Shown one piece after another: positions 41,939 through 58,570 of a DNA stretch of 64,000 nucleotides; position 1 is the first letter of the stretch, and each line of letters opens with the position of its first letter. This stretch comes from Pseudomonadota bacterium (lineage in GTDB: Bacteria > UBA10199 > 2-02-FULL-44-16 > JBDRGF01): assembly GCA_043818055.1 (NCBI GenBank), contig JBDRGF010000159.1:17623-81622 (forward strand). The letters run 5' to 3'. The position numbers and the translations under genes were made by a program. Below the pieces are notes generated by a model. The model did not search any database and was not told the origin of the DNA. It saw only the letters and a program-made list of their open reading frames with translations.

Positions 41939-42755
41939 TTACTTGACATAATATCCACCGGTTTTTTTGCTGCCACGGTATTCGATTTTACCTTGCTTTT
42001 TTAATTTTGCCGCCCATCTTTCGACTGTCTTTGGCGACATGCTTATTTTTTCAGCAATTTCTGAAATTCTTTTACCTGGATTGACTCTAATAAATTCCAG
42101 AAAAACATTTATTCCCTCATTTATTCCCTCATTTATTCCCTCATTTATTCCCTCACTTATTCCCTCACTTATTCCCTCATTTATTCCCTCATTTATTCCC
42201 TCACCTCTTTTTCGTAAGTGAAAAACAATGACAAATGCCCCTGCTGTCTCACTAAACTCTGGTGCAGGGTTACCATTTTCAAGAGAATAGTTATAAATCT
42301 TTTGAAAGCCTCCTCCCCAGCCTTCAATCAAACCTATCTTATGAAAAACATCTACTATCGCCTTGTTCCGGGGTATGGAACGACCTTCAGTCAGTAAATT
42401 TTCTATGTTGATTTCCTTAGGTAACAATCCGGGGCTCCATATTTCCAGCCTGTCATCAAAAATTCTGATCTGTATATTACCTGCGTCTGCATAATCACGG
42501 TGTGCAACTGCATTAATAATAGCCTCTCTTATGGCCGGTAAAGAATAGTCCCGGATCTGTATGCAGCTTTACCTTGTTGATCAAATCCTCAATCGCTCCT
42601 TTTCCAACAACCATGTTTAAAGGTCCACCGCTATCATCCAAACCTACGATCACTTTTCCACCACTCTTGTTTGCAAAGGCACCAAGGGTGACTATTACAT
42701 CTCTCCACTCCGCAAGAGAGGATTTGAGTTCCAATGTTTCGGATTCTTTATACAT
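41939..42755 (-). pseudogene. AlbA_2 (Schlafen-like DNA-binding) + wHTH regulator, disrupted; contains (NEGI)n coding repeat
   Basis: Two adjacent ORFs, 42513..42755 (AlbA_2 N-domain, ETLELKSSLAEW...FANKSGGKVIVG) and 41939..42427 (wHTH C-terminus), are separated by a frame break. 12-nt tandem repeat at about 42100-42215. Confidence 0.5.
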
Positions 42756-43479
42756 GGCTATACACCCTCATGATCTCTTGTGCATACTCAACTGCCTGTT
42801 CAGCTTCTTTTCTGGTGATTTCATGTTCGTCATCCATCCAATTTTCAGACTTCTGAAATAACTTATAAAGATATTTAAATTTTGAGGCTATATCTTTACC
42901 ATAATATTTCTCGGTCAGCGGGAGAAGCACATCTATCTTGCTTGAATATCCCTCGTTCTTCATGGCAAGTGAAGCTTGTAAGGCATGTTTTGATGCAACA
43001 AAGCAATAATCGATCACACCATTTGTAAAGCCATCCTTCAGCAATTCCTGAGCCAACTTAACTTTCCGGGATTCAAAATCTCTAGAGTCTTTAAAAAAGC
43101 CTGCATATTTAGATGAAGGAGACTCAAAACTTAACGACATATCAATATCTCCAAAGATAAGCTTTCCTTCACGCTTAGCAGCTGTATAAACAGGCAACTT
43201 TTCCTTTACGAAATCCTTCTCGCTTGCAACTAAAACAGAAAAAGCCTCTTCCTTTACAAGTTCATCTCTGATGCGATTTGCCTTTTTATTCACATTATCA
43301 ACAACCATAAGCAGATCGACATCCGAATCTTCCCTGGCACATAATTTTGCCCATGACCCATAGAGAATGGCCGCTTTAATACTTTTACTTTCAGTTAGCT
43401 TTTGCCTGATTGTTTCAATATGCGTGTCTATTGGCTGAATCATATTAATTAATGGGTTGGGGTATTTTTCTATGAGCAT
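42748..43479 (-). CDS. Fused minimal nucleotidyltransferase (MNT) - HEPN domain protein
   Basis: N-terminal ILYGSWAKLCAREDSDVDLLMVV NTase motif and a C-terminal HEPN-like helical domain. Confidence 0.65.
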   Translation of the reverse strand: MLIEKYPNPLINMIQPIDTHIETIRQKLTESKSIKAAILYGSWAKLCAREDSDVDLLMVVDNVNKKANRIRDELVKEEAFSVLVASEKDFVKEKLPVYTAAKREGKLIFGDIDMSLSFESPSSKYAGFFKDSRDFESRKVKLAQELLKDGFTNGVIDYCFVASKHALQASLAMKNEGYSSKIDVLLPLTEKYYGKDIASKFKYLYKLFQKSENWMDDEHEITRKEAEQAVEYAQEIMRVYSHV

Positions 43480-43503
43480 TTTTTAATAGATAGTGGTCAG
43501 TCT

Positions 43504-43572
43504 GAAACTAGAAGCCAGAAGCAAGAAGCTAGAAATCAGAGGCCAGAAAATAGAAGTTAGAAACTAGAGGTC
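43504..43572. repeat. Heptanucleotide tandem array block A, about 9 units (AAGYYAG/AGAAGYY)
   Basis: gaaactag aagccag aagcaag aagctag aaatcag aggccag aaaatag aagttag aaactag, period 7. Confidence 0.8.
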
Positions 43573-43771
43573 ATAAATCCTTGATTCCTGCAATTTTTAG
43601 CAGGGCTTTTTGCAAACCGACTTTCAAAGGCCTATTGCCATGTATCGGCAAACTTATTCGTTCTCTCTATCCATCCTTCATAAATATATGATGGCTGCCG
43701 TGTATCCTCTTTAACATCCAGCCGTTATTTTCCAACAATTCTACCATTTCTTTACCTGATAGGGCTTTCAT
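43571..43771 (-). pseudogene. hicA: hicA toxin gene interrupted by an in-frame TAG
   Basis: MKALSGKEMVELLENNGWMLKRIHGSHHIFMKDG*RERISLPIHGNRPLKVGLQKALLKIAGIKDL. Amber codon at 43667..43669. ATGA overlap with the hicB stop. Confidence 0.6.
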
Positions 43772-43971
43772 ACAGCAATTTCCAGCACTTCTGCTTTATC
43801 ATGATTCTCTCCCTCATCAACATCGACAGACAAACAACCTTCCACTGCCTCGTATATATTACTTAGCAACTCTTCCCAAGTGTCGCCTTGCGTGATACAG
43901 CCCGGAACAGCCGGCACTTCCGCCCAATATCCACCCTCCTCCGCTTTGTGAACGACTACCTTTATCTTCAT
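43768..43971 (-). CDS. hicB: HicB-family antitoxin (UPF0150-like)
   Basis: MKIKVVVHKAEEGGYWAEVPAVPGCITQGDTWEELLSNIYEAVEGCL, the canonical HicB N-domain. Confidence 0.7.
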   Translation of the reverse strand: MKIKVVVHKAEEGGYWAEVPAVPGCITQGDTWEELLSNIYEAVEGCLSVDVDEGENHDKAEVLEIAV

Positions 43972-44009
43972 TATCTCACCCTCCCCCTGTTTATCATTTT
44001 TATTTTGTG

Positions 44010-44135
44010 GTTTTCATCAAAATTTTGAATACACCTTCATGATCTCTTGTGCATATTTGACCGATTGTTCAACTTCGTTTCTTTATATTTCATCTTCCGC
44101 ATCCAGCCAATTCTCAGACTTCTGATATAACTCAT
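44010..44135 (-). pseudogene. Degraded duplicate of the 3' end of the MNT-HEPN gene
   Basis: About 75% nucleotide identity to 42757..42870. Encodes ...YAQEIMKVYSKF* compared with ...YAQEIMRVYSHV*. Confidence 0.35.
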
Positions 44136-44142
44136 ATAGATT

Positions 44143-44205
44143 CAGAGGCTTGAAGTCAGAAGCTAGAAGTCAGAAGTCAGAAGCTAGAGGTCAGAGGGGG
44201 GAAGT
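44143..44205. repeat. Heptanucleotide tandem array block B (AGAAGYY)
   Basis: agaggct tgaagtc agaagct agaagtc agaagtc agaagct agaggtc agagggg. Confidence 0.8.
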
Positions 44206-44630
44206 TGCTATCGTTCCCTTTTTGTAATTGACTTTGACTTCAAATCGTCTGAAGAAGTCCAATCCTATCAGCACCTTTATTCCCCAAGATTGGTCGAAGT
44301 GCGAGACATAGAATTGCATCAAACTTATGCCATCTGCCATCCCTGGTTGTGACAAAAACCGGAAGAAATATGTAGCGCGCGCTCGTATCAAAAGTGGTGA
44401 TGTTCGGCATGAGCTCTCCATCCGCCGGGGAATTTGCTTTCGCCGGTGTACTTAAAAGTGCAATCCTTATCAGGTGCCGGAGGACTAAAAACATCCTGAT
44501 CGTTCTTTGAGTGTCGTTCAACAATACCGGAGATGAGCCGGCCGGATTCATCTTCATCACAATCAACAATCATAAGCCACTCATCCGGAAAGGCCTTCTT
44601 CATCTCTTCCCAACTCATTTTCTGTCCCAT
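44191..44630 (-). pseudogene. Frameshifted small gene; the C-terminal part resembles a retropepsin-like (clan AA) aspartic protease
   Basis: Three overlapping ORFs in three frames. One ends ...WGIKVLIGLDFFRRFEVKVNYKKGTI, which is like the C-terminal motif of bacterial retropepsin-like proteases. Confidence 0.3.
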
Positions 44631-44667
44631 GATTTTCTCCCAATGGAAATTTATATTGCGATATACA

Positions 44668-44782
44668 AAAGCAAGAAGTCAGAGGCAAGAAGTCAGAAGT
44701 TAGAAGTTAGAGGTCAGAAACAAGAAGTCAGAAGTCAGAAGTCAGAAGCAAGAAGCTAGGAGTCAGGGGCCGGAAGTCAACC
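44668..44782. repeat. Heptanucleotide tandem array block C, about 16 units (AGYYAGA)
   Basis: agcaaga agtcaga ggcaaga agtcaga agttaga agttaga ggtcaga aacaaga agtcaga agtcaga agtcaga agcaaga agctagg agtcagg. Confidence 0.8.
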
Positions 44783-44833
44783 GTAGGTTTGCCAGTTGTT
44801 TAAGAGTCCCCATAACATTTTGCCGATTTCATC

Positions 44834-45151
44834 TTAGTTTTCATAACATCCTTGGTAAGTTGCCTCATCGATATATTTGCACTTGCTTGCGAAATCAAGC
44901 CATACCTTAACGTCTTCGCATGAACCGATAGAATCCAACAGATGCCTTTTAAATACATTTTCAAATCGCCTTTTGGCCCAACATTCTGCAATATTGGCTG
45001 GAATTGATCTCGACGATCTTCTCATTTGATCTATCAAACTATAGCGTTCTTCCTTTGGAAATTTACCGGTCAATCTGAATATACCCATCGCAGATTCGAA
45101 AGATTTCGTAAAAACGACCAAATCTTTACATGTTTTTATCTTCTCTTGCAT
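44834..45151 (-). CDS. Four-helix-bundle protein (23S rRNA intervening-sequence protein family)
   Basis: MQEKIKTCKDLVVFTKSFESAMGIFRLTGKFPKEERYSLIDQMRRSSRSIPANIAEC, the typical family signature. Confidence 0.8.
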   Translation of the reverse strand: MQEKIKTCKDLVVFTKSFESAMGIFRLTGKFPKEERYSLIDQMRRSSRSIPANIAECWAKRRFENVFKRHLLDSIGSCEDVKVWLDFASKCKYIDEATYQGCYEN

Positions 45152-45200
45152 CTGGCTTCTTGCTTCTGACTTCTTGCTTCTTGCCTCTGGCTTCTGCGAC
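45152..45200. repeat. Heptanucleotide tandem array block D (inverted orientation) plus adjacent duplicated 5'-end fragment of the MNT-HEPN gene (to about 45250)
   Basis: gcttcttgcttctgacttcttgcttcttgcctctggcttctg is the reverse complement of AGAAGYY units. 45195-45250 is about 85% identical to 43390-43450. Confidence 0.7.
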
Positions 45201-45284
45201 TTTCAGTTAGCTTTTATCTAATTGTTTCAATATGCGTATCTATTGGCTGTCAGTTGAAAAAAATAAATTACAGATGTTGGTTTA

Positions 45285-46626
45285 TCAGTCCTTTTTTATC
45301 ACTTTCCAGTGACCACCCTTATCGGGGCCAACACGTTCTATAAATCCTTTTAATTTTAACTTCTTCAGGTTTTCCTCAATTTTCCTCTGTGAAATTCCAA
45401 CAAACGTTGCCAGTTCATTTGCAGAAACATGAGGTTTTTCCCTAATTGTTTTGAGAATTTTAGCCTGGTTTCCCGTTACCTTTTCTCCGACCTTTTCTCC
45501 GACCTTTTCTCCGACCTTTTTAGACCTATTATAAACAGTGACCAAAAACCCCCCACCCTGTACATCAAACTTTGGAGAAGGAAGTTTTCTATCGGCAAAT
45601 GAATCAAATACGCGTTTTATTCCGGAACCATATTTTTCCATTATCTTCAGCTCTTTAAACATTGTTGCAATCTGCTTGTTTCTTATCTCCGATTTATAAT
45701 TCCCTTTCACCAGCTGTTCAACAGTAAGCGGTCCCATCAATTTTCCTGGATTGTAAAATTCCATTCGATCACTAAGACGAACTTGAGTAGTCGCGATGAA
45801 CGACCATGTTTATTACCAGCTCTCTAAGTGCATCCAAAGGATAATCCCAAACCTCATCTCTTTGTGGCTTTCCAGTTATAACATATGCCTTATTGATGTG
45901 CTTGGTTATAAAATGCATCACTTCATCAACTTCTGAAAGCACATCCGTTCTAACCGTTGTACCATCTTTGATAAGTGTCTCCGTCTGAAATCTGCCCAGT
46001 TCAATCGTGCTTAATATCGACCACTCTTTCATAAAAAGTAGAAAACACGCCTTCGATATTTTTTTATCACGCAACAACTCATACTTTTTTAGAAACGTAA
46101 TAGGGTCATCCGTAATTGGATATTCTCTGTTTCTATTTGCTCTTTCAATGAACAGCACAACCTTATCCAGAGAAATATCATTTATTGTATGATTGCTGTC
46201 CTCATAATAATCCCAGCTAGAATTAAATGTTTTGAGATGCATATTGACGACTTCATTTATATTCAGAAGATGATTAGAATTTTTGACCCGTTTGTAATAT
46301 CTGCCTCTGAACGCCACCGGTTTTATCGGATATTCAATCGTATTTATAACAGCTATCAATTTTCCACCGCGTTTTTTAACATCGACGTCAGGAATGATTG
46401 ATGGGTTGGTTTTGTTCTTGATTTCATTTATCCAATTCTGAACAGTTTCTTTGCCTATTTTAACACCTTCCACTTTGCCTTTATCATTCACGCCGATAAC
46501 AACACTCCCGCCTTTCGCATTAGCAAAAGCCACAAGCGTCTCTATTACCTCATTTCCAAAATTGAGTTTAAATTCCTGTTTGTCTGATTCTTTGTATTTC
46601 ATTCTACACTGTCCACGGTAGCCCAA
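45285..46626 (-). pseudogene. AlbA_2 + HATPase_c_4-like + wHTH 'divergent AAA / Schlafen-like' regulator, split by a frameshift; contains (KVGE)n 12-nt coding repeat
   Basis: ORFs 45772..46626 (AlbA_2, FANAKGGSVVIGV) and 45285..45764 (wHTH C-terminus) lie in different frames. ccgaccttttct x3-4 at about 45480-45530. Confidence 0.55.
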
Positions 46627-52737: not shown

Positions 52738-52767
52738 TTTGCCTCCATATAAAAATACTGCCCTCAG

Positions 52768-52840
<73 letters not shown>

Positions 52841-53047
52841 ACTGAAAGCAGTTTTTAAAAACATCAAACTGAGTTCGCTTAGCTAGCTAATATGTGAAAA
52901 AAGATCAAGGGTTTAATCTCATGTTTGGGATATTTTAGCATCGGCATCACATAAACTGTTTATTTTTATTCCCACTTGATATCTGGCTGGAATTATGCTG
53001 AATTAAGCATCAGAAGCCCTTTTTAAGGGAACAAATTAGGAGGCAAC

Positions 53048-54796
53048 ATGAAGAAAAAATCCCTATCAAACCTTGTGACCTTTATCCTCATCATGTCATT
53101 TCTTATAAGTTGTTCAGGAGGAACGAGTTCACAGGGAGGAGTAGATAATTCGGCATCGGTTGCAGATGATAGCCTTGTTGGAGTTTGGACGCAAAACACG
53201 AGTGACGCAAACGCTCTAAAAACGATGACTCTTACAAAAACGAACGTCACCAACAGCCTTAGCATGGATGGGAATATGGGGAATAACACACAAGTGAAAG
53301 GGGTAATGGTTGTAATCCCATCCTCCACTGCAAAAGCTGCTGCCGACGCTGAAACTGCAACAGCAATCTTGAGTTTCTATGATACAGGAACAAACGGCGC
53401 TATCCTAGATGTTACCATCAAAGGCGCGATCTCCTTATCTGCCGACTGCAAAACACTTACGATAGATGACAGCCAGAACAACACTACAACTACATTCACC
53501 AGCACCAAGACATCCTGCTCGGACACCGGGACAGTAACACAGCCTACAACACCCGGCGCACAGCCCGCCAACTGCATCAATAGCGATATCCCAGCAAAGA
53601 TAAATTGGGCAAGACAGATAGGTTCAACAAATACCGATTTTGCCACTAGCATTTGTATGGATAAAACCGGAAATGTTTACATGGCCGGACATACCCTGGG
53701 CAGTTTGGACAACAACCAAAACGCGGGGGGGGCCGATATTTTTCTCGTAAAACACGACTCCTCGGGAAATAAAATATGGCTTCGGCAGATTGGAACAGCA
53801 TCAAAGGACCTTGCTGCTGGGGTTGCTGCCGACTTGAATGAGAATATCTATATGACGGGATATACCCAAGGGGGTTTGGATAATAATCAAAATGCCGGTG
53901 ATTATGACATCTTTGTCATGAAGTTCGATGCCTTGGGGAACAAGCTCTGGACGCGCCAGATGGGCACTAATGCGTATGATGCCTCATCCTCAATAGCGGT
54001 GGATAGCAGCGGAAATGTGTATATTGCCGGCAAAACGAATGGAGCTTTGGATGGACAGAAACATTCAGGGCTCAGGGATATCTTTCTTATCAAGCTGGAT
54101 TCGTCAGGCAACAAGCTCTGGACACGCCTGTCGGGAACCGCTGCAAACGATGAAGCCACCGGTGTCGCTGTGGATAGCACCGGGAATGCCTATGTCACCG
54201 GCATGACAGAGGGTGCATTGGATGGCAATCAGCATTCAGGGTTCTCTGATATATTTGTTATGGAGTTCGATCCGTCAGGCAATAAGCTCTGGACGGAACA
54301 GAGGGGAACAGCCCTTAACGATAATACATCGGCCATTGCAGTTGATAGTAGTGGAAACAGCTATGTATGTGGCAGGACGGAGGGTGGGCTGAGTGGCAAT
54401 CAAAATGCTGGATTGACGGATATCTTTCTCATTAAGCTCGATTCAGCGGGAAATGATATCTGGACGAAACAGTTCGGCACAACACAAAATGACAGCGCAT
54501 CAGGGATCGCAACAGATATGAGCAACAATATTTATGTCACAGGCAATACCGATGGAGGTGTGGATAACTATAACAATATGGGATTTTCAGATATTTTTAC
54601 CGCAAAAATAGACCCATCATCTGGAAATCCAGTCTGGATATTTCAAACGGGTTCTCCCGGCGGCGACGAGGCAACTGGAATTACGATTGATTCAGGCGGA
54701 AGTATCTACGTGGCAGGACATACCGACGACGATTTGTATGGTAATAAGAATGCGGGCATAAGAGATGCCTTTGCGATCGCGCTGATTTGCAATTAA
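53048..54796 (+). CDS. Lipoprotein with multiple SBBP beta-propeller repeats
   Basis: Signal peptide plus lipobox (LISC). At least 7 repeats of the ...GNVYxxGxTxGxLDGNQNAGxxDIFLxKxDSSGNKLWTRQxGT type. Confidence 0.7.
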   Translation: MKKKSLSNLVTFILIMSFLISCSGGTSSQGGVDNSASVADDSLVGVWTQNTSDANALKTMTLTKTNVTNSLSMDGNMGNNTQVKGVMVVIPSSTAKAAADAETATAILSFYDTGTNGAILDVTIKGAISLSADCKTLTIDDSQNNTTTTFTSTKTSCSDTGTVTQPTTPGAQPANCINSDIPAKINWARQIGSTNTDFATSICMDKTGNVYMAGHTLGSLDNNQNAGGADIFLVKHDSSGNKIWLRQIGTASKDLAAGVAADLNENIYMTGYTQGGLDNNQNAGDYDIFVMKFDALGNKLWTRQMGTNAYDASSSIAVDSSGNVYIAGKTNGALDGQKHSGLRDIFLIKLDSSGNKLWTRLSGTAANDEATGVAVDSTGNAYVTGMTEGALDGNQHSGFSDIFVMEFDPSGNKLWTEQRGTALNDNTSAIAVDSSGNSYVCGRTEGGLSGNQNAGLTDIFLIKLDSAGNDIWTKQFGTTQNDSASGIATDMSNNIYVTGNTDGGVDNYNNMGFSDIFTAKIDPSSGNPVWIFQTGSPGGDEATGITIDSGGSIYVAGHTDDDLYGNKNAGIRDAFAIALICN

Positions 54797-54813
54797 AAAG
54801 TTTGTGTAAAAAA

Positions 54814-55572
54814 TTATTTTGTAAAATCAACTGTAAATGTGCTGCCGTTACAATTGCCGCAGTTTGCTATCTCAAGTGTAAATTTTGCCTTATCAGAACA
54901 TCCAACGCTACCCTGTGAGTTTTTAGCTAATACCAAATTGCAATTCCGCGTGTTATTCGTCCATGTACCTCCTGTTGTAGCGTTATCGTTCATCGTAAAT
55001 ATAACCCCACCTGCTATGTAGCGGTTTTGCTCACACTTTCCATCTTGATATTGACCGGCTGTATCTGCAGGCAGGTTGTAGCCCGAACAATCCAGAAGTT
55101 CAGTGAACATCCACCTTATTTTTGCAGAGTTTGGAGTCGTCTCGGCCGGAGGAGGCTCAGTAGAGGTTTCAGGCGACGTCTCTTTGTTGGATTCTTCCGG
55201 AGCAGTTTCATTCGCGGGTTCGGTTTCTCTTGCGGGTTCGTCTGGGCCGCCGTCGCGGGGGGCTCTTTCCTCCGCAACTATCTCAGGTGATTTCTCCTGT
55301 GGTTTCTCAGATGTCTTATCAACGGGCTTTTCAGCAGGTGGTGTGTCGGGCATCTTCTCTGTGCCGCCATCTTTTGGAGTCTCCTCGTATGGTTTCCCCT
55401 CTTTGATTTTTTCCAGCTGTTTGGCGCTTTTGCAATAATCCTCTAACTTCTTGCTACTATCCTTATCGACTTTGACCTTTTCCCCTTTGCACTCCACGTA
55501 GGTGTCTTTTCCCGCACAGCCTTTGAGCAACAGGGCCAGAGTCCCTAATCCCAATACAATCAACGGAACCAT
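54814..55572 (-). CDS. Putative lipoprotein with Pro/Glu-rich linker and Cys-rich C-terminal domain
   Basis: MVPLIVLGLGTLALLLKGC lipobox. Low-complexity PE-rich middle region. Confidence 0.45.
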   Translation of the reverse strand: MVPLIVLGLGTLALLLKGCAGKDTYVECKGEKVKVDKDSSKKLEDYCKSAKQLEKIKEGKPYEETPKDGGTEKMPDTPPAEKPVDKTSEKPQEKSPEIVAEERAPRDGGPDEPARETEPANETAPEESNKETSPETSTEPPPAETTPNSAKIRWMFTELLDCSGYNLPADTAGQYQDGKCEQNRYIAGGVIFTMNDNATTGGTWTNNTRNCNLVLAKNSQGSVGCSDKAKFTLEIANCGNCNGSTFTVDFTK

Positions 55573-55695
55573 AATTTCCTCCTTGCCGCATTGAAGTGCT
55601 ATCTGCAGAGAAAGTCAAGAGAATATATCGCCAAAAGCTCTATTTTCAACGTTTTGCGAGCAATAAAAAAATGCCCAATTAACAATACCAAAATT

Positions 55696-55828
55696 CAATA
55701 TCCAATATCCAATATCCAATATCCAATATCCAATATCCAATATCCAATATCCAATATCCAATATCCAATATCCAATATTCAGTTAACAATATCCAATATC
55801 CAATATTCAATACACAATACTCAATTAA
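55696..55828. repeat. (CAATATC)n heptanucleotide microsatellite, about 12 near-perfect plus about 7 degenerate units, in a divergent promoter region
   Basis: caatatccaatatccaatatcc... seen directly in the sequence. Between the minus gene start at 55572 and the plus gene start at 55866. Confidence 0.9.
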
Positions 55829-55865
55829 TGTTGAATAATTATCGACAAGAATATAGATTGTAGCG

Positions 55866-56378
55866 ATGTTATCGAAAACTATCATTCTATTCTTAATCAC
55901 GCTCCTGCCCTTTTTGGAGCTGAGAGCTTCGATACCATTTGGAATCTTATCCGGCACCGTTGCTATGCCTTTGGGGTTTCACGCTACAGGGCTTGATCTC
56001 AGCTGGCCGATCGTCTTTGCCATCTGTGTGGTTTCCAATATGGTGCTTGGTATTATACTGTATCCGGTCATCCATCATCTTATTCTTCTTTTGGAGAAGA
56101 TTCCTTTATTCGGGAAATTTTGGAAACGCCGCGTTGAAAAGACTCAAAGAAAAATCCACCAATATGTCGAGAGATGGGGGATGATCGGGGTTGCCCTGTT
56201 CATCGCCGTGCCGCTCCCCGGCAGTGGGTCATATAGCGGTGCAATCGGTGCTTATCTGATAGGCATGAGCTACAGGCGATTTATACTCGCCAATTGCATC
56301 GGCGTTACGATCGCGGGGATACTGGTGACGCTCGCAACGATGACTGGCAAAGGAATTTGGGCATTTTTCTCTAGCTGA
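55866..56378 (+). CDS. Small multidrug-export-like (COG2426/Sm_multidrug_ex) membrane protein
   Basis: LELRASIPFGI motif and 4 TM segments. 170 aa. Confidence 0.45.
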   Translation: MLSKTIILFLITLLPFLELRASIPFGILSGTVAMPLGFHATGLDLSWPIVFAICVVSNMVLGIILYPVIHHLILLLEKIPLFGKFWKRRVEKTQRKIHQYVERWGMIGVALFIAVPLPGSGSYSGAIGAYLIGMSYRRFILANCIGVTIAGILVTLATMTGKGIWAFFSS

Positions 56379-56404
56379 GAGCTAAAAACCTGCCCGAAAG
56401 TAGT

Positions 56405-56437
56405 AACGCGGGCGGGTTTAAAACCCGCCCCTACAAA
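56405..56437. terminator. REP-like hairpin, probable bidirectional terminator between convergent genes
   Basis: gcgggcgggtttaaaacccgcccctacaaaaag. Confidence 0.55.
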
Positions 56438-56442
56438 AAGAG

Positions 56443-57006
56443 TTAATCTTTGAGCGATGGGCATTTGCAACCCTGTTTACCCACTGACTTGACCTTTTTT
56501 TCGATGATGTTCATCTCGTCGGAGCCGCTTAAAATTAGAGGGAAAAATTCGGCTTTATCATCCTGTGCCCACTTTAGATTTTCATTCTCCCACCGGGCTA
56601 CCATCTGCCGCGATTCACCCTCATCGATCACAAATACAAGGTCTCTCTTATAATCGAAGTCCTTTGAGATAAGGGGCGCGTAGGTTTTGAGCCTCTTTGC
56701 CAGAAAGTTCACATAGACAGAAAAATAGCGCTTCAGGAAGCGATTCAGACGCGCCCTCTCCTGGGGCAGATATTTATCCAGCAACGTCACTTCAACCTCT
56801 ATCATGTTCTTATCCGTTACCCTCGGGGCAAAGGCCAGCAGGCATGAAGTGAGGTAGAGGCTGGTGATATCAAGTTGCAATTGCAACGCCTGTTTTTGAG
56901 TGAACGGCGCCGACTTGTTCAAATCGCCGCTTTTTAAACTGGCAAAGGCCTGTGATGTCGAAAACAAGAGAACTACGACGATCAAGCATGCGGAAAACCT
57001 TTTCAT
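56443..57006 (-). CDS. Secreted hypothetical protein
   Basis: N-terminal signal peptide MKRFSACLIVVVLLFSTSQAFA. No recognised domain. Confidence 0.45.
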   Translation of the reverse strand: MKRFSACLIVVVLLFSTSQAFASLKSGDLNKSAPFTQKQALQLQLDITSLYLTSCLLAFAPRVTDKNMIEVEVTLLDKYLPQERARLNRFLKRYFSVYVNFLAKRLKTYAPLISKDFDYKRDLVFVIDEGESRQMVARWENENLKWAQDDKAEFFPLILSGSDEMNIIEKKVKSVGKQGCKCPSLKD

Positions 57007-57103
57007 ATAACACCTCCAAGTAAGCTTGATGAACCAGTTTTATGCGATTGTCAACTCTCTAGGAAAAAGTGTAGGAGTGTAGAAGTGTAGGAGTGTTTAA
57101 GTT

Positions 57104-57760
57104 ATGATGATATGTGGATTGATATTGGCTGCGGGGGTGTCATCTAGGATGGGGGCTTGCAAGGCGCTGCTCTCACTTCGTGATGGAAGCACGCTTTTGT
57201 CTGCGCAATATAACCTGCTCAAAAATGCAGGGTGCGAGAGTATAGCGGTCGTAGTAGGAGCAAATAATAAAGATATCGTAAAGGCGCATGAGGATCTGGA
57301 TGTCATCTGGGTTGAAAATGAGCAATGGGAGTTGGGGCAGTTTTCATCTTTGCAATGTGGTTTGGATAAATTGCTAAAACTATCACCCCCTCCCCATCCC
57401 TCCCCCCTCAAGGGGGAGGGGCTAAATGTGGTGATCCTCCCCATCGATACTGTCGGGGTGGAGGGTAAAACGGTTGAAATTCTCATAAGCGAAGCTCAAC
57501 AGGATGAAAACTATGATGCTTATGTGCCAGAATATGCTGGTAGAGGTGGACATCCCATACTCATCACAAAAAAAATTATAACCCGCAGTCTTGATTTAGA
57601 CCCTAAAAATGAGAGGGCCAGACTCGATTTCATCATCTCTGAGGCTCACCATAGGATGGTCCCTGTCGATGACAAAGGTATAAGAAATAACATCAACACG
57701 AGAAGCCAATGGAGAAATTATATTTCCCAATCACAAGAGATCTTTCAGATAATCAGATAG
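57104..57760 (+). CDS. mocA: MobA-like NTP transferase, probable molybdenum cofactor cytidylyltransferase
   Basis: GLILAAGVSSRMGACKALL matches the MobA/MocA family. Adjacent to an XDH-family operon. Contains an unusual GC-rich palindromic in-frame insert. Confidence 0.65.
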   Translation: MMICGLILAAGVSSRMGACKALLSLRDGSTLLSAQYNLLKNAGCESIAVVVGANNKDIVKAHEDLDVIWVENEQWELGQFSSLQCGLDKLLKLSPPPHPSPLKGEGLNVVILPIDTVGVEGKTVEILISEAQQDENYDAYVPEYAGRGGHPILITKKIITRSLDLDPKNERARLDFIISEAHHRMVPVDDKGIRNNINTRSQWRNYISQSQEIFQIIR

Positions 57761-58570
57761 TATGTTAGCAGAGACAAAGCTCCTGTAGGCGGCGGTCGAT
57801 CTGATATCATCGATCGATTTCCATTCATTCTTCAGTGACTCTTTAGCTTGATCAATCAAATCTTCACTTAGCAACTCTCCTTCAAGAAGCTTCACTGTTT
57901 TAGGCGCCGTCACAACAGTCGGCCCCATGCTTGCGGCTGCTATCGAGATCGATTCGATAACGCCTTTTTTTACAATCGACCCAACGCAGAGAGCAGCCTT
58001 TGATATCGTCTGCGCCTTTCGTGTTCCTATCTTATAGAACTTCGCATTCATTCCATTTTGAGGAGTGGGAAGTTTTAATCTTGTGATGATCTCGTCCGGT
58101 TTTAGATTCAATTTTTTATACCCTTCAAAAAGATCGACGAGTTTGATAAGGCGAGAGCCTCTAAGACTTTTAAGTTCTAATTCACAATTGTAAACTACAA
58201 GGACAGGAGGGGTATCCCCCGCAGGACTTGCGTTTGCGACGTTTCCACCGATCGTTCCGCGACTTTGTATCTGCTTGGCGCCGATGGTCGAACATGCGTG
58301 CGATAGAGTAGAAAAATGTTTTTTGATCAAAGCATCCTCTTTGATCATCGCATGGGTAACGAGCGCCCCTATATAAACATCTTCCCCCTCTTCAGATATG
58401 CCGCTCAATTCAGAGAGGGCTGATATATCTATGACGCCCTTCAAATCGATGGCGCCGCTTTTCCATTGGACGATGAGATCCGTCCCTCCGGCGAGGAGTG
58501 GAAAGCGGGTCGATTCGTCGAATAGATATCGAAGCGCTTCGTCCAATGTTGTTGGTTTGAGATATTTCAA
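57731..58570 (-). CDS. Xanthine dehydrogenase family FAD-binding (medium) subunit; proposed TTG start
   Basis: FAD_binding_5-like LLAGGTDLIVQWK...GTIGGNVANASPAGD. Track ORF 57731..58906 has a spurious N-terminal 112 aa overlapping the 2Fe-2S gene. TTG at 58570 forms TTGA with the upstream stop. Confidence 0.7.
   Translation of the reverse strand: MKYLKPTTLDEALRYLFDESTRFPLLAGGTDLIVQWKSGAIDLKGVIDISALSELSGISEEGEDVYIGALVTHAMIKEDALIKKHFSTLSHACSTIGAKQIQSRGTIGGNVANASPAGDTPPVLVVYNCELELKSLRGSRLIKLVDLFEGYKKLNLKPDEIITRLKLPTPQNGMNAKFYKIGTRKAQTISKAALCVGSIVKKGVIESISIAAASMGPTVVTAPKTVKLLEGELLSEDLIDQAKESLKNEWKSIDDIRSTAAYRSFVSANILSDYLKDLL

Follow-up and report, generated by a model that had tools for sequence, protein, structure and literature searches.

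Does a long heptanucleotide repeat between two divergent genes of an uncultured bacterium act as a phase-variation switch, or is it one of the many generic intergenic heptamer arrays of bacterial genomes? A preliminary description of the locus had proposed that changes in heptamer copy number alter promoter spacing or phase and had regarded this as a classical slipped-strand phase-variation architecture. We analyzed the repeat within a stretch of 64,000 nucleotides (referred to here as the window; G+C content, 39.7%). The organism (NCBI label, "MAG: Pseudomonadota bacterium") belongs to an uncultured lineage that has been sampled poorly; the nearest Dxs and the nearest homologue of the exporter described below are 66% and 67% identical, respectively. 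The named neighbors are Deltaproteobacteria, Nitrospirae, and Thermodesulfobacteria MAGs, and the neighbors come from MAGs of the groundwater type.

The repeat tract and the two genes that flank it are as follows.

54814 to 55572, minus strand: orphan secreted-protein gene (252 aa), predicted from the open reading frame (ORF)
55682 to 55695, plus strand: two decayed leading units, ACAATAC and CAAAATT (the Tandem Repeats Finder array starts at 55683)
55696 to 55772, plus strand: perfect core, 11 copies of CAATATC when read in register (7 copies in the allele of an ENA contig, L001)
55773 to 55828, plus strand: degenerate tail of 8 units, with the same sequence in both alleles
55866 to 56378, plus strand: exporter gene (170 aa), encoding a PF06695 (Sm_multidrug_ex/COG2426) membrane protein (Pfam E = 4.7e-26)

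The tract lies in the 293-bp gap separating the two divergent genes. Tandem Repeats Finder reported a period-7 array at 55683 to 55812 (18.7 copies; score, 197; consensus, CAATATC) and a further call in the tail at 55801 to 55825. Read in register, the tract comprises 19 CAATATC-type units from 55696 to 55828 (perfect core, 77 bp; whole tract, 133 bp). The tail units are, in order, CAATATT, CAGTTAA, CAATATC twice (i.e., a perfect pair at 55787 to 55800), CAATATT, CAATACA, CAATACT, and CAATTAA; the first of these, the twelfth unit of the tract, has one mismatch to CAATATC, and CAGTTAA has four. This reading agrees exactly with the 12 near-perfect plus 7 degenerate heptamers counted previously, and the ORFs confirm the earlier placement of the tract between a minus-strand gene starting at 55572 and a plus-strand gene starting at 55866. 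With 11 perfect units and 1 near-perfect unit in succession, the tract contains a run of identical short units that is long enough to slip. The 14-mer CAATATCCAATATC, which corresponds to two units, had 13 matches in the window with at most one mismatch, every one of them inside the tract, versus an expectation of 0.08 (100 shuffles). No Rfam family was detected in the 293-bp gap, and no inverted copy of the array occurs within 700 nt. On the plus strand, the RNA of this tract was unstructured (z = -0.12). The minus-strand RNA, (GAUAUUG)n, was predicted to fold on itself via G-U pairs (-76.6 kcal/mol; z = -4.3), and this self-pairing stretch lies upstream of the predicted minus-strand promoter.

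The orphan protein has a hydrophobic N-terminal segment that ends in LLKGC and is followed by an acidic, Pro-rich linker and a Cys-rich C terminus, and its gene carries a strong AGGAGG ribosome-binding site (55578 to 55583). The protein had no Pfam match and no homologue among 5.8 billion proteins, the sole match being itself (NCBI ABIE74_12495). It had been called a lipoprotein; the hydrophobic N-terminal segment and the Cys residue agree with this call, but the lipobox (LKGC) is noncanonical, with K at position -2, and the assignment is therefore plausible, not firm. For the plus-strand gene, the earlier label of a small membrane exporter-like gene is upheld by the match to PF06695, which is described as a "putative small multidrug export protein." Its ATG is not preceded by a Shine-Dalgarno sequence. 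Both gene products are predicted to be located at the cell surface, and no regulator gene is adjacent to the tract.

An exact-protein look-up of the 170-aa exporter retrieved a second allele from ENA ERZ27247128 (contig k141_364108, i.e., L001; 2,724 nt). The contig was 100% identical to positions 55402 to 58153 of the window over its 2,724 nt, with no mismatches and one 28-nt gap. The gap, located in the perfect core, corresponds to exactly four units and leaves 7 perfect copies instead of 11, with the degenerate tail and both flanks unchanged. Since the tract is present in an independent second assembly, it is not an artifact of one assembly, and since a four-unit gap interrupts otherwise identical DNA, the tract is length-polymorphic. 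This rests on one allele pair, in which both members are short-read metagenome assemblies rather than reads. The preliminary description had named a lack of length polymorphism in deep reads or among related strains as grounds for abandoning its reading; the comparison instead revealed alleles of 7 and 11 units. Exact-protein look-ups of five neighboring genes gave that single ENA contig or nothing, and a protein-guided scan of JGI metagenomes detected no relative. We infer that slippage is the mechanism of the copy-number change.

Tandem repeats can be miscounted by De Bruijn assemblers. Given that both sequences are short-read metagenome assemblies, the difference could in principle be a collapse or expansion of the repeat during assembly, with the tract being stable in the organism. 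We consider this highly improbable: the k of 141 in the contig name exceeds the length of the near-perfect tract (84 nt), so spanning k-mers should resolve the repeat and a simple collapse would not be expected, and outside the gap the two assemblies match without exception, in the flanks and the degenerate tail as well as in the 2.7 kb of sequence around them.

Sigma-70-like sites were predicted by a consensus scan and a relaxed scan, and those considered match the consensus at 8 to 10 of 12 positions.

55649 to 55622, minus strand: best promoter-like site for the orphan gene, TTGAAA-16-TATATT (10/12), predicted
55811 to 55839, plus strand: best promoter-like site for the exporter gene, TACACA-17-AATAAT (9/12), predicted, with its -35 hexamer in the degenerate tail
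55831 to 55859, plus strand: alternative exporter promoter, TTGAAT-17-TAGATT (8/12), predicted by the relaxed scan
55679 to 55708, plus strand: weak alternative promoter, TTAACA-18-CAATAT (8/12), recognized by eye, with its -10 hexamer in the second repeat unit

Both best sites are outside the perfect core. That of the orphan gene is located between the array and the gene, which puts the array upstream of the predicted -35 hexamer. From the TTGAAT-17-TAGATT site, transcription would start on or near the ATG and yield a leaderless mRNA, which would fit with the absent Shine-Dalgarno sequence of the exporter gene. The weak TTAACA-18-CAATAT site (TTAACA at 55679; CAATAT at 55703) would, if used, make the array the 5' leader of the exporter gene, as in "Ca. 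Haliotispira prima" (see below). Its TTAACA aligns with TTGCCA, a -35-like hexamer kept upstream of the homologous gene in relatives, and its spacing is constant whatever the copy number. No -10 element of the Haliotispira type directly abuts the array, this weak site being the nearest to such an arrangement. The repeat itself creates periodic weak TGGATA-17-GATATT sites on the minus strand (relaxed scan).

In every arrangement that we predicted, the copy number would leave the spacing between -35 and -10 unchanged. At 77 to 133 bp, the tract cannot be a 16- to 18-bp spacer, and with the best sites outside the perfect core, the proposal that copy number alters promoter spacing is not supported in its classical sense. 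That sense is exemplified by the (TA)n tract between the divergent fimbrial genes hifA and hifB of Haemophilus influenzae and by the homopolymers of Neisseria porA and opc, in which the repeat itself is the 16- to 18-bp spacer between -35 and -10. The present locus resembles these systems in having an SSR in a promoter region and divergent envelope-related genes. Promoter-spacer phase variation of the hifA/hifB, porA, or opc type was nevertheless rejected, as the tract is 77 to 133 bp long and lies outside the predicted hexamers. What survives of the slipped-strand architecture described earlier is an SSR that is long, perfect, and prone to slippage, lies between divergent genes, and shows a four-unit difference; its predicted position outside the core promoters departs from the classical design.

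The array was absent upstream of exporter homologues at 65 to 68% identity, and it is therefore recent and lineage-specific. In two of the homologous regions, the gene order is UDP-glucose dehydrogenase, tRNA, and exporter (L165, 2675 to 3000; L163, 965 to 1417). The corresponding tRNA gene of the window is farther away.

52767 to 52840, minus strand: tRNA-Lys gene (in relatives, the tRNA gene directly adjoins the exporter gene)

Between tRNA-Lys and the exporter gene, the window contains an SBBP beta-propeller lipoprotein gene (53048 to 54796), the orphan gene, and the array. Compared with the relatives, this layout (52767 to 55865) suggests an insertion beside the tRNA gene. A separate element was observed in the same region of the relatives. 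In L163 (1350 to 1420), three tandem copies of a unit of ~21 nt (GGATAACTTCGATAGC...) stand directly upstream of the exporter ATG; a single copy is present in L165 and a diverged remnant (ATCGACAAGAATATAGATT) in the window. This unit may be a conserved operator or leader element.

The CAATATC tract is not the only heptamer array in the window. Four others, all intergenic and composed of degenerate (AGAAGTC)n, were detected.

43504 to 43577: (AGAAGTC)n array
44142 to 44195: (AGAAGTC)n array
44674 to 44766: (AGAAGTC)n array
45144 to 45196: (AGAAGTC)n array, inverted

These 64 kb of the genome thus contain five intergenic heptamer arrays with two motifs. The AGAAGTC arrays include an inverted pair, whereas the CAATATC array has no inverted partner. 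The AGAAGTC arrays separate small accessory genes: a HicB-like gene (43768 to 43971), an unassigned gene (44388 to 44630), and a 23S_rRNA_IVP gene (44834 to 45151) with a product of the four-helix-bundle type. The 1.8-kb segment from 43387 to 45249 is bracketed by 51-nt direct repeats (43387 to 43437 and 45199 to 45249; 92% identical) and has a cassette-like layout. The genes flanking this segment encode paralogous proteins (HATPase_c_4 plus winged helix; 25% identity) and contain in-frame 12-nt tandem repeats (42106 to 42203, 8.2 copies; 45478 to 45520, 3.6 copies) that encode (EGIN)n and (GEKV)n linkers. Elsewhere in the window, a long codirectional cluster on the minus strand (1152 to 31301) encodes at least four B12-binding radical-SAM enzymes, a SPASM-type radical-SAM protein, a methyltransferase, an MOP flippase, and a sugar aminotransferase; it is probably an unusual cluster for the modification of glycans or lipids.

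When species-representative genomes, one for each species, were scanned for exact (CAATATC)3, at least 120 stretches matched. Among the matches listed were Anaerolineae and other Chloroflexota, Patescibacteria, Saprospiraceae and other Bacteroidota, Verrucomicrobiota, Gemmatimonadota, Gammaproteobacteria, and one spirochete. Runs in the listed matches mostly had 3 to 5 units, the 11 units of the window being the longest among about 150 sampled, and the arrays usually had point-variant heptamers at their edges and often an inverted partner. Outside Haliotispira, 44 of the 111 short runs (3 or 4 units) among the matches listed were within long open frames, and 37 of these 44 had exactly 3 units (21 nt, which preserves the frame); runs of at least 5 units in the same matches were all outside long ORFs. 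According to crude ORF calls for the matches listed, the gaps occupied were codirectional (35 sense and 14 antisense), divergent (9), or convergent (10), the unstructured CAAUAUC strand being the sense strand more often (35 versus 14). Given the convergent and codirectional occurrences, (CAATATC)n arrays are therefore not confined to promoter regions. Inverted pairs, i.e., (GATATTG)n, a short spacer, and (CAATATC)n, were frequent, mainly in Anaerolineae (L021, L028/L079, L054, L096, and L108, among others), and would form long hairpins or cruciforms. Some three-unit arrays occupied orthologous, in-frame positions inside long ORFs of different MAGs (L013/L034).

Viral contigs (IMG/VR) provided a measure of how common such arrays are in general. 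Three-unit arrays of CAATATC were present in 16 stretches, compared with 8 and 15 for same-composition controls, 107 for TAACTGA, and 47 for AGAAGTC. We rejected the idea that CAATATC is a special cross-phylum motif, as composition-matched heptamers are equally frequent in viral contigs; the many CAATATC matches therefore reflect the general abundance of heptamer arrays. TAACTGA and AGAAGTC, by comparison, are truly enriched, several-fold over composition-matched AT-rich heptamers, even in viral or proviral DNA. Taken together, the four other arrays in the window, the occurrence of the motif in many phyla, and the equally common control heptamers weaken the reading of the tract as a classical contingency locus.

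One genome among the matches differed from this general picture. In "Ca. Haliotispira prima" (NZ_CP123443), at least 38 (CAATATC)3-8 arrays each directly follow a consensus promoter (stretches L006, L014, L024, L025, L029, L036, L047, L052, L058, L060, L062, L066, L104, and L115; for example, L062, 2270 to 2460). A TANAAT -10 hexamer abuts the array in 38 of the 38 scorable cases (TATAAT in 26), with a -35 hexamer of the TTGAC[N] type exactly 17 nt upstream of the -10 hexamer (TTGACN in 35 of 38). Conserved hexamers on either side of a 17-nt spacer that takes 29 different forms are the mark of a real promoter. The arrays are located about 60 to 220 nt upstream of tandem paralogous lipoprotein genes (lipoboxes LSGC, LPAC, or LLAC), and the number of units varies from 3 to 8 among the paralogues. 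From this arrangement, the repeat would be the initial transcribed region, and the set looks like an SSR-in-leader family of surface lipoproteins in a host-associated (abalone) spirochete. Because the repeat is there built into the expression signals of envelope genes, a phase-variation reading stays alive for the window as well. The window differs from Haliotispira in having no abutting -10 hexamer and in the antisense orientation of its array relative to the orphan secreted-protein gene. The literature searched contained nothing relevant on (CAATATC)n or on the Haliotispira repeats.

Heptamer SSRs as a class have been described previously. They are overrepresented in many bacteria, mostly nonpathogens, in which they are intergenic, variable in length between close relatives, sometimes arranged as inverted pairs, and unlinked to pathogenicity; cyanobacterial STRR heptamers and the GGGAATC and GGGGAYT arrays of Xanthomonas and Nostoc, respectively, are examples (Rehm et al. 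2015, PMC4692102). TAACTGA arrays are known from Beggiatoaceae, Cyanobacteria, and Bacteroidetes (MacGregor 2015, PMC4679880). The present tract resembles the STRR, GGGAATC, and TAACTGA arrays in its 7-nt head-to-tail units, intergenic location, heterogeneous edge units, and length variation between close relatives, in the presence of several arrays in one region, and in having no tie to pathogenicity genes, the function of these arrays being unproven. Like them, it consists of tandem intergenic 7-nt units with variable edges and a length difference and is absent at the orthologous site. It differs in several respects: CAATATC is AT-rich, without G-quadruplex potential, and outside the named motif families (TAACTGA, GGGAATC, and CCCCAGT); typical arrays of the class have 2 to 6 units, as opposed to 11 perfect units here; and most TAACTGA sets are directly against a start codon, whereas the CAATATC tract is not. 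On these features, the tract appears to be of the same kind as the STRR, GGGAATC, and TAACTGA arrays without being a member of a named motif family.

Among repeats with an established effect on expression, those outside the core promoter offer the closest parallels. The TAAA repeat upstream of nadA is of this type. In H. influenzae, the (ATCTTTC)n heptamer SSR of hmw1A and hmw2A controls hmw1A, with expression that is graded, inverse to repeat length, and changed by slippage; the transcribed repeats base-pair with a G-rich arm, and RNase III cleaves the resulting hairpin (PMC12721329, PMC8262952). The two loci share a heptanucleotide SSR upstream of a surface-protein gene (predicted here), and a graded effect is proposed for ours too. 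They differ in that hmw belongs to H. influenzae and the present tract to an uncultured environmental organism in which transcription of the tract is putative. A hairpin of the hmw type was excluded, as the plus-strand RNA is unstructured and there is no complementary arm within 700 nt. For Vibrio cholerae ctxAB, a preprint reports TTTTGAT heptads whose copy number varies among strains and tracks promoter activity and which ToxR, ToxT, and H-NS bind (bioRxiv 10.1101/2021.05.14.444153). The direct heptads immediately upstream of a -35 hexamer (predicted here) are common to both loci; those of ctxAB are bound by defined regulators, and for our tract, the adjacent genes suggest no binding protein. 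By analogy, the tract would work most like the repeats of hmw, nadA, or ctxAB, i.e., from outside the core promoter.

On balance, we lean toward the view that the tract is a slippage-prone generic intergenic heptamer SSR serving as a variable spacer or leader and having at most a graded effect in cis; we hold this to be somewhat better than an even chance. Under this explanation, the tract would gain and lose whole 7-bp units, as in the alleles of 7 and 11. It would constitute most of the DNA between the two divergent core promoters or, with TTAACA-18-CAATAT in use, most of the 5' leader of the exporter gene. A single unit would shift the distance by 7 bp and rotate the helical phase through ~240 degrees, with three units restoring the phase. 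As the -35/-10 spacing is predicted to be unchanged, any influence of the tract on its two neighboring genes would be expected to be graded (i.e., that of a rheostat) or absent rather than classical on/off. An on/off phase-variation switch at the tract is possible only, and the promoter positions and any effect on expression are what we infer from consensus matches. Counting against a generic reading, no longer run of CAATATC occurred among the roughly 150 sampled, and a secreted-protein gene lies next to the tract, as might be expected of a selected contingency locus.

A true contingency locus, in which slippage in unit number stochastically switches or strongly modulates the orphan gene, the PF06695 gene, or both, and in which hypermutability is selected, is the strongest competitor, although we judge it rather unlikely. 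The mechanism would resemble that of nadA or hmw, with the tract upstream of the -35 hexamer or in the 5' untranslated region. It is favored by the long perfect run, by the four-unit difference between alleles with identical flanks, and by the location between divergent genes, in a promoter region beside a lineage-specific secreted-protein gene. The Haliotispira repeats, placed after consensus promoters and before dozens of paralogous lipoprotein genes with 3 to 8 units, speak for it as well, as does the control of hmw1A by a heptamer SSR (PMC12721329). However, the tract is outside the predicted core promoters, and, contrary to the orientation in Haliotispira, the array runs antisense to the orphan gene. 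Heptamer arrays are also generic, both in the window and across phyla, convergent gaps included, and the organism belongs to an uncultured environmental lineage (nearest Dxs, 66%) rather than to the host-adapted pathogens.

Alternatively, the tract could be a candidate protein-binding array, with a regulator or nucleoid protein occupying CAATATC units and the number of sites setting promoter strength. The direct heptads do run into the predicted -35 hexamer of the exporter gene, three units would correspond to two helical turns so that every third unit would be on the same face, and ctxAB offers a reported precedent (bioRxiv 10.1101/2021.05.14.444153). We regard this as improbable, given that no regulator gene is adjacent, that the motif is no more common than control heptamers, and that relatives lack the array at this site, although binding units are usually conserved by selection.

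We attach very little credence to a frame-dependent upstream ORF running through the array and coupled by termination-reinitiation to the exporter ATG, which lacks a Shine-Dalgarno sequence: with 11 units, an ORF at 55591 to 55863 (plus strand) does end 2 nt short of the ATG, and with 7 units (L001, 190 to 357) a frame shift moves the stop about 80 nt earlier, to the TAA of CAGTTAA, but the ORF starts with TTG without a ribosome-binding site, inside the leader of the other gene and with no good promoter upstream, and none of the six frames of the repeat contains a stop codon, so that an open frame across it is expected by default; the stop position may be coincidental.

A broader proposal goes beyond this locus. 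Sense-strand (CAATATC)n placed just downstream of a promoter could have evolved repeatedly and independently as a variable-leader module of envelope genes, which we consider doubtful on present evidence. If it were true, the module would control at least 38 paralogous lipoprotein genes in "Ca. Haliotispira prima" and, here, the PF06695 gene or the adjacent orphan gene, and the tract would be a genuine contingency locus in a free-living, nonpathogenic lineage. Haliotispira is probably the more tractable system for studying SSR-in-leader control of lipoprotein families; the practical value of the present locus is limited, as it comes from an uncultured MAG with no close relatives. Heptamer SSRs are overrepresented in bacteria, and the functional cases come from a few pathogens (i.e., hmw and ctxAB). 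Against this background, the locus is a clean example, with a long perfect array, a four-unit length difference, divergent genes on either side, and no counterpart in relatives, and it could serve to test whether heptamer arrays tune expression in environmental bacteria.
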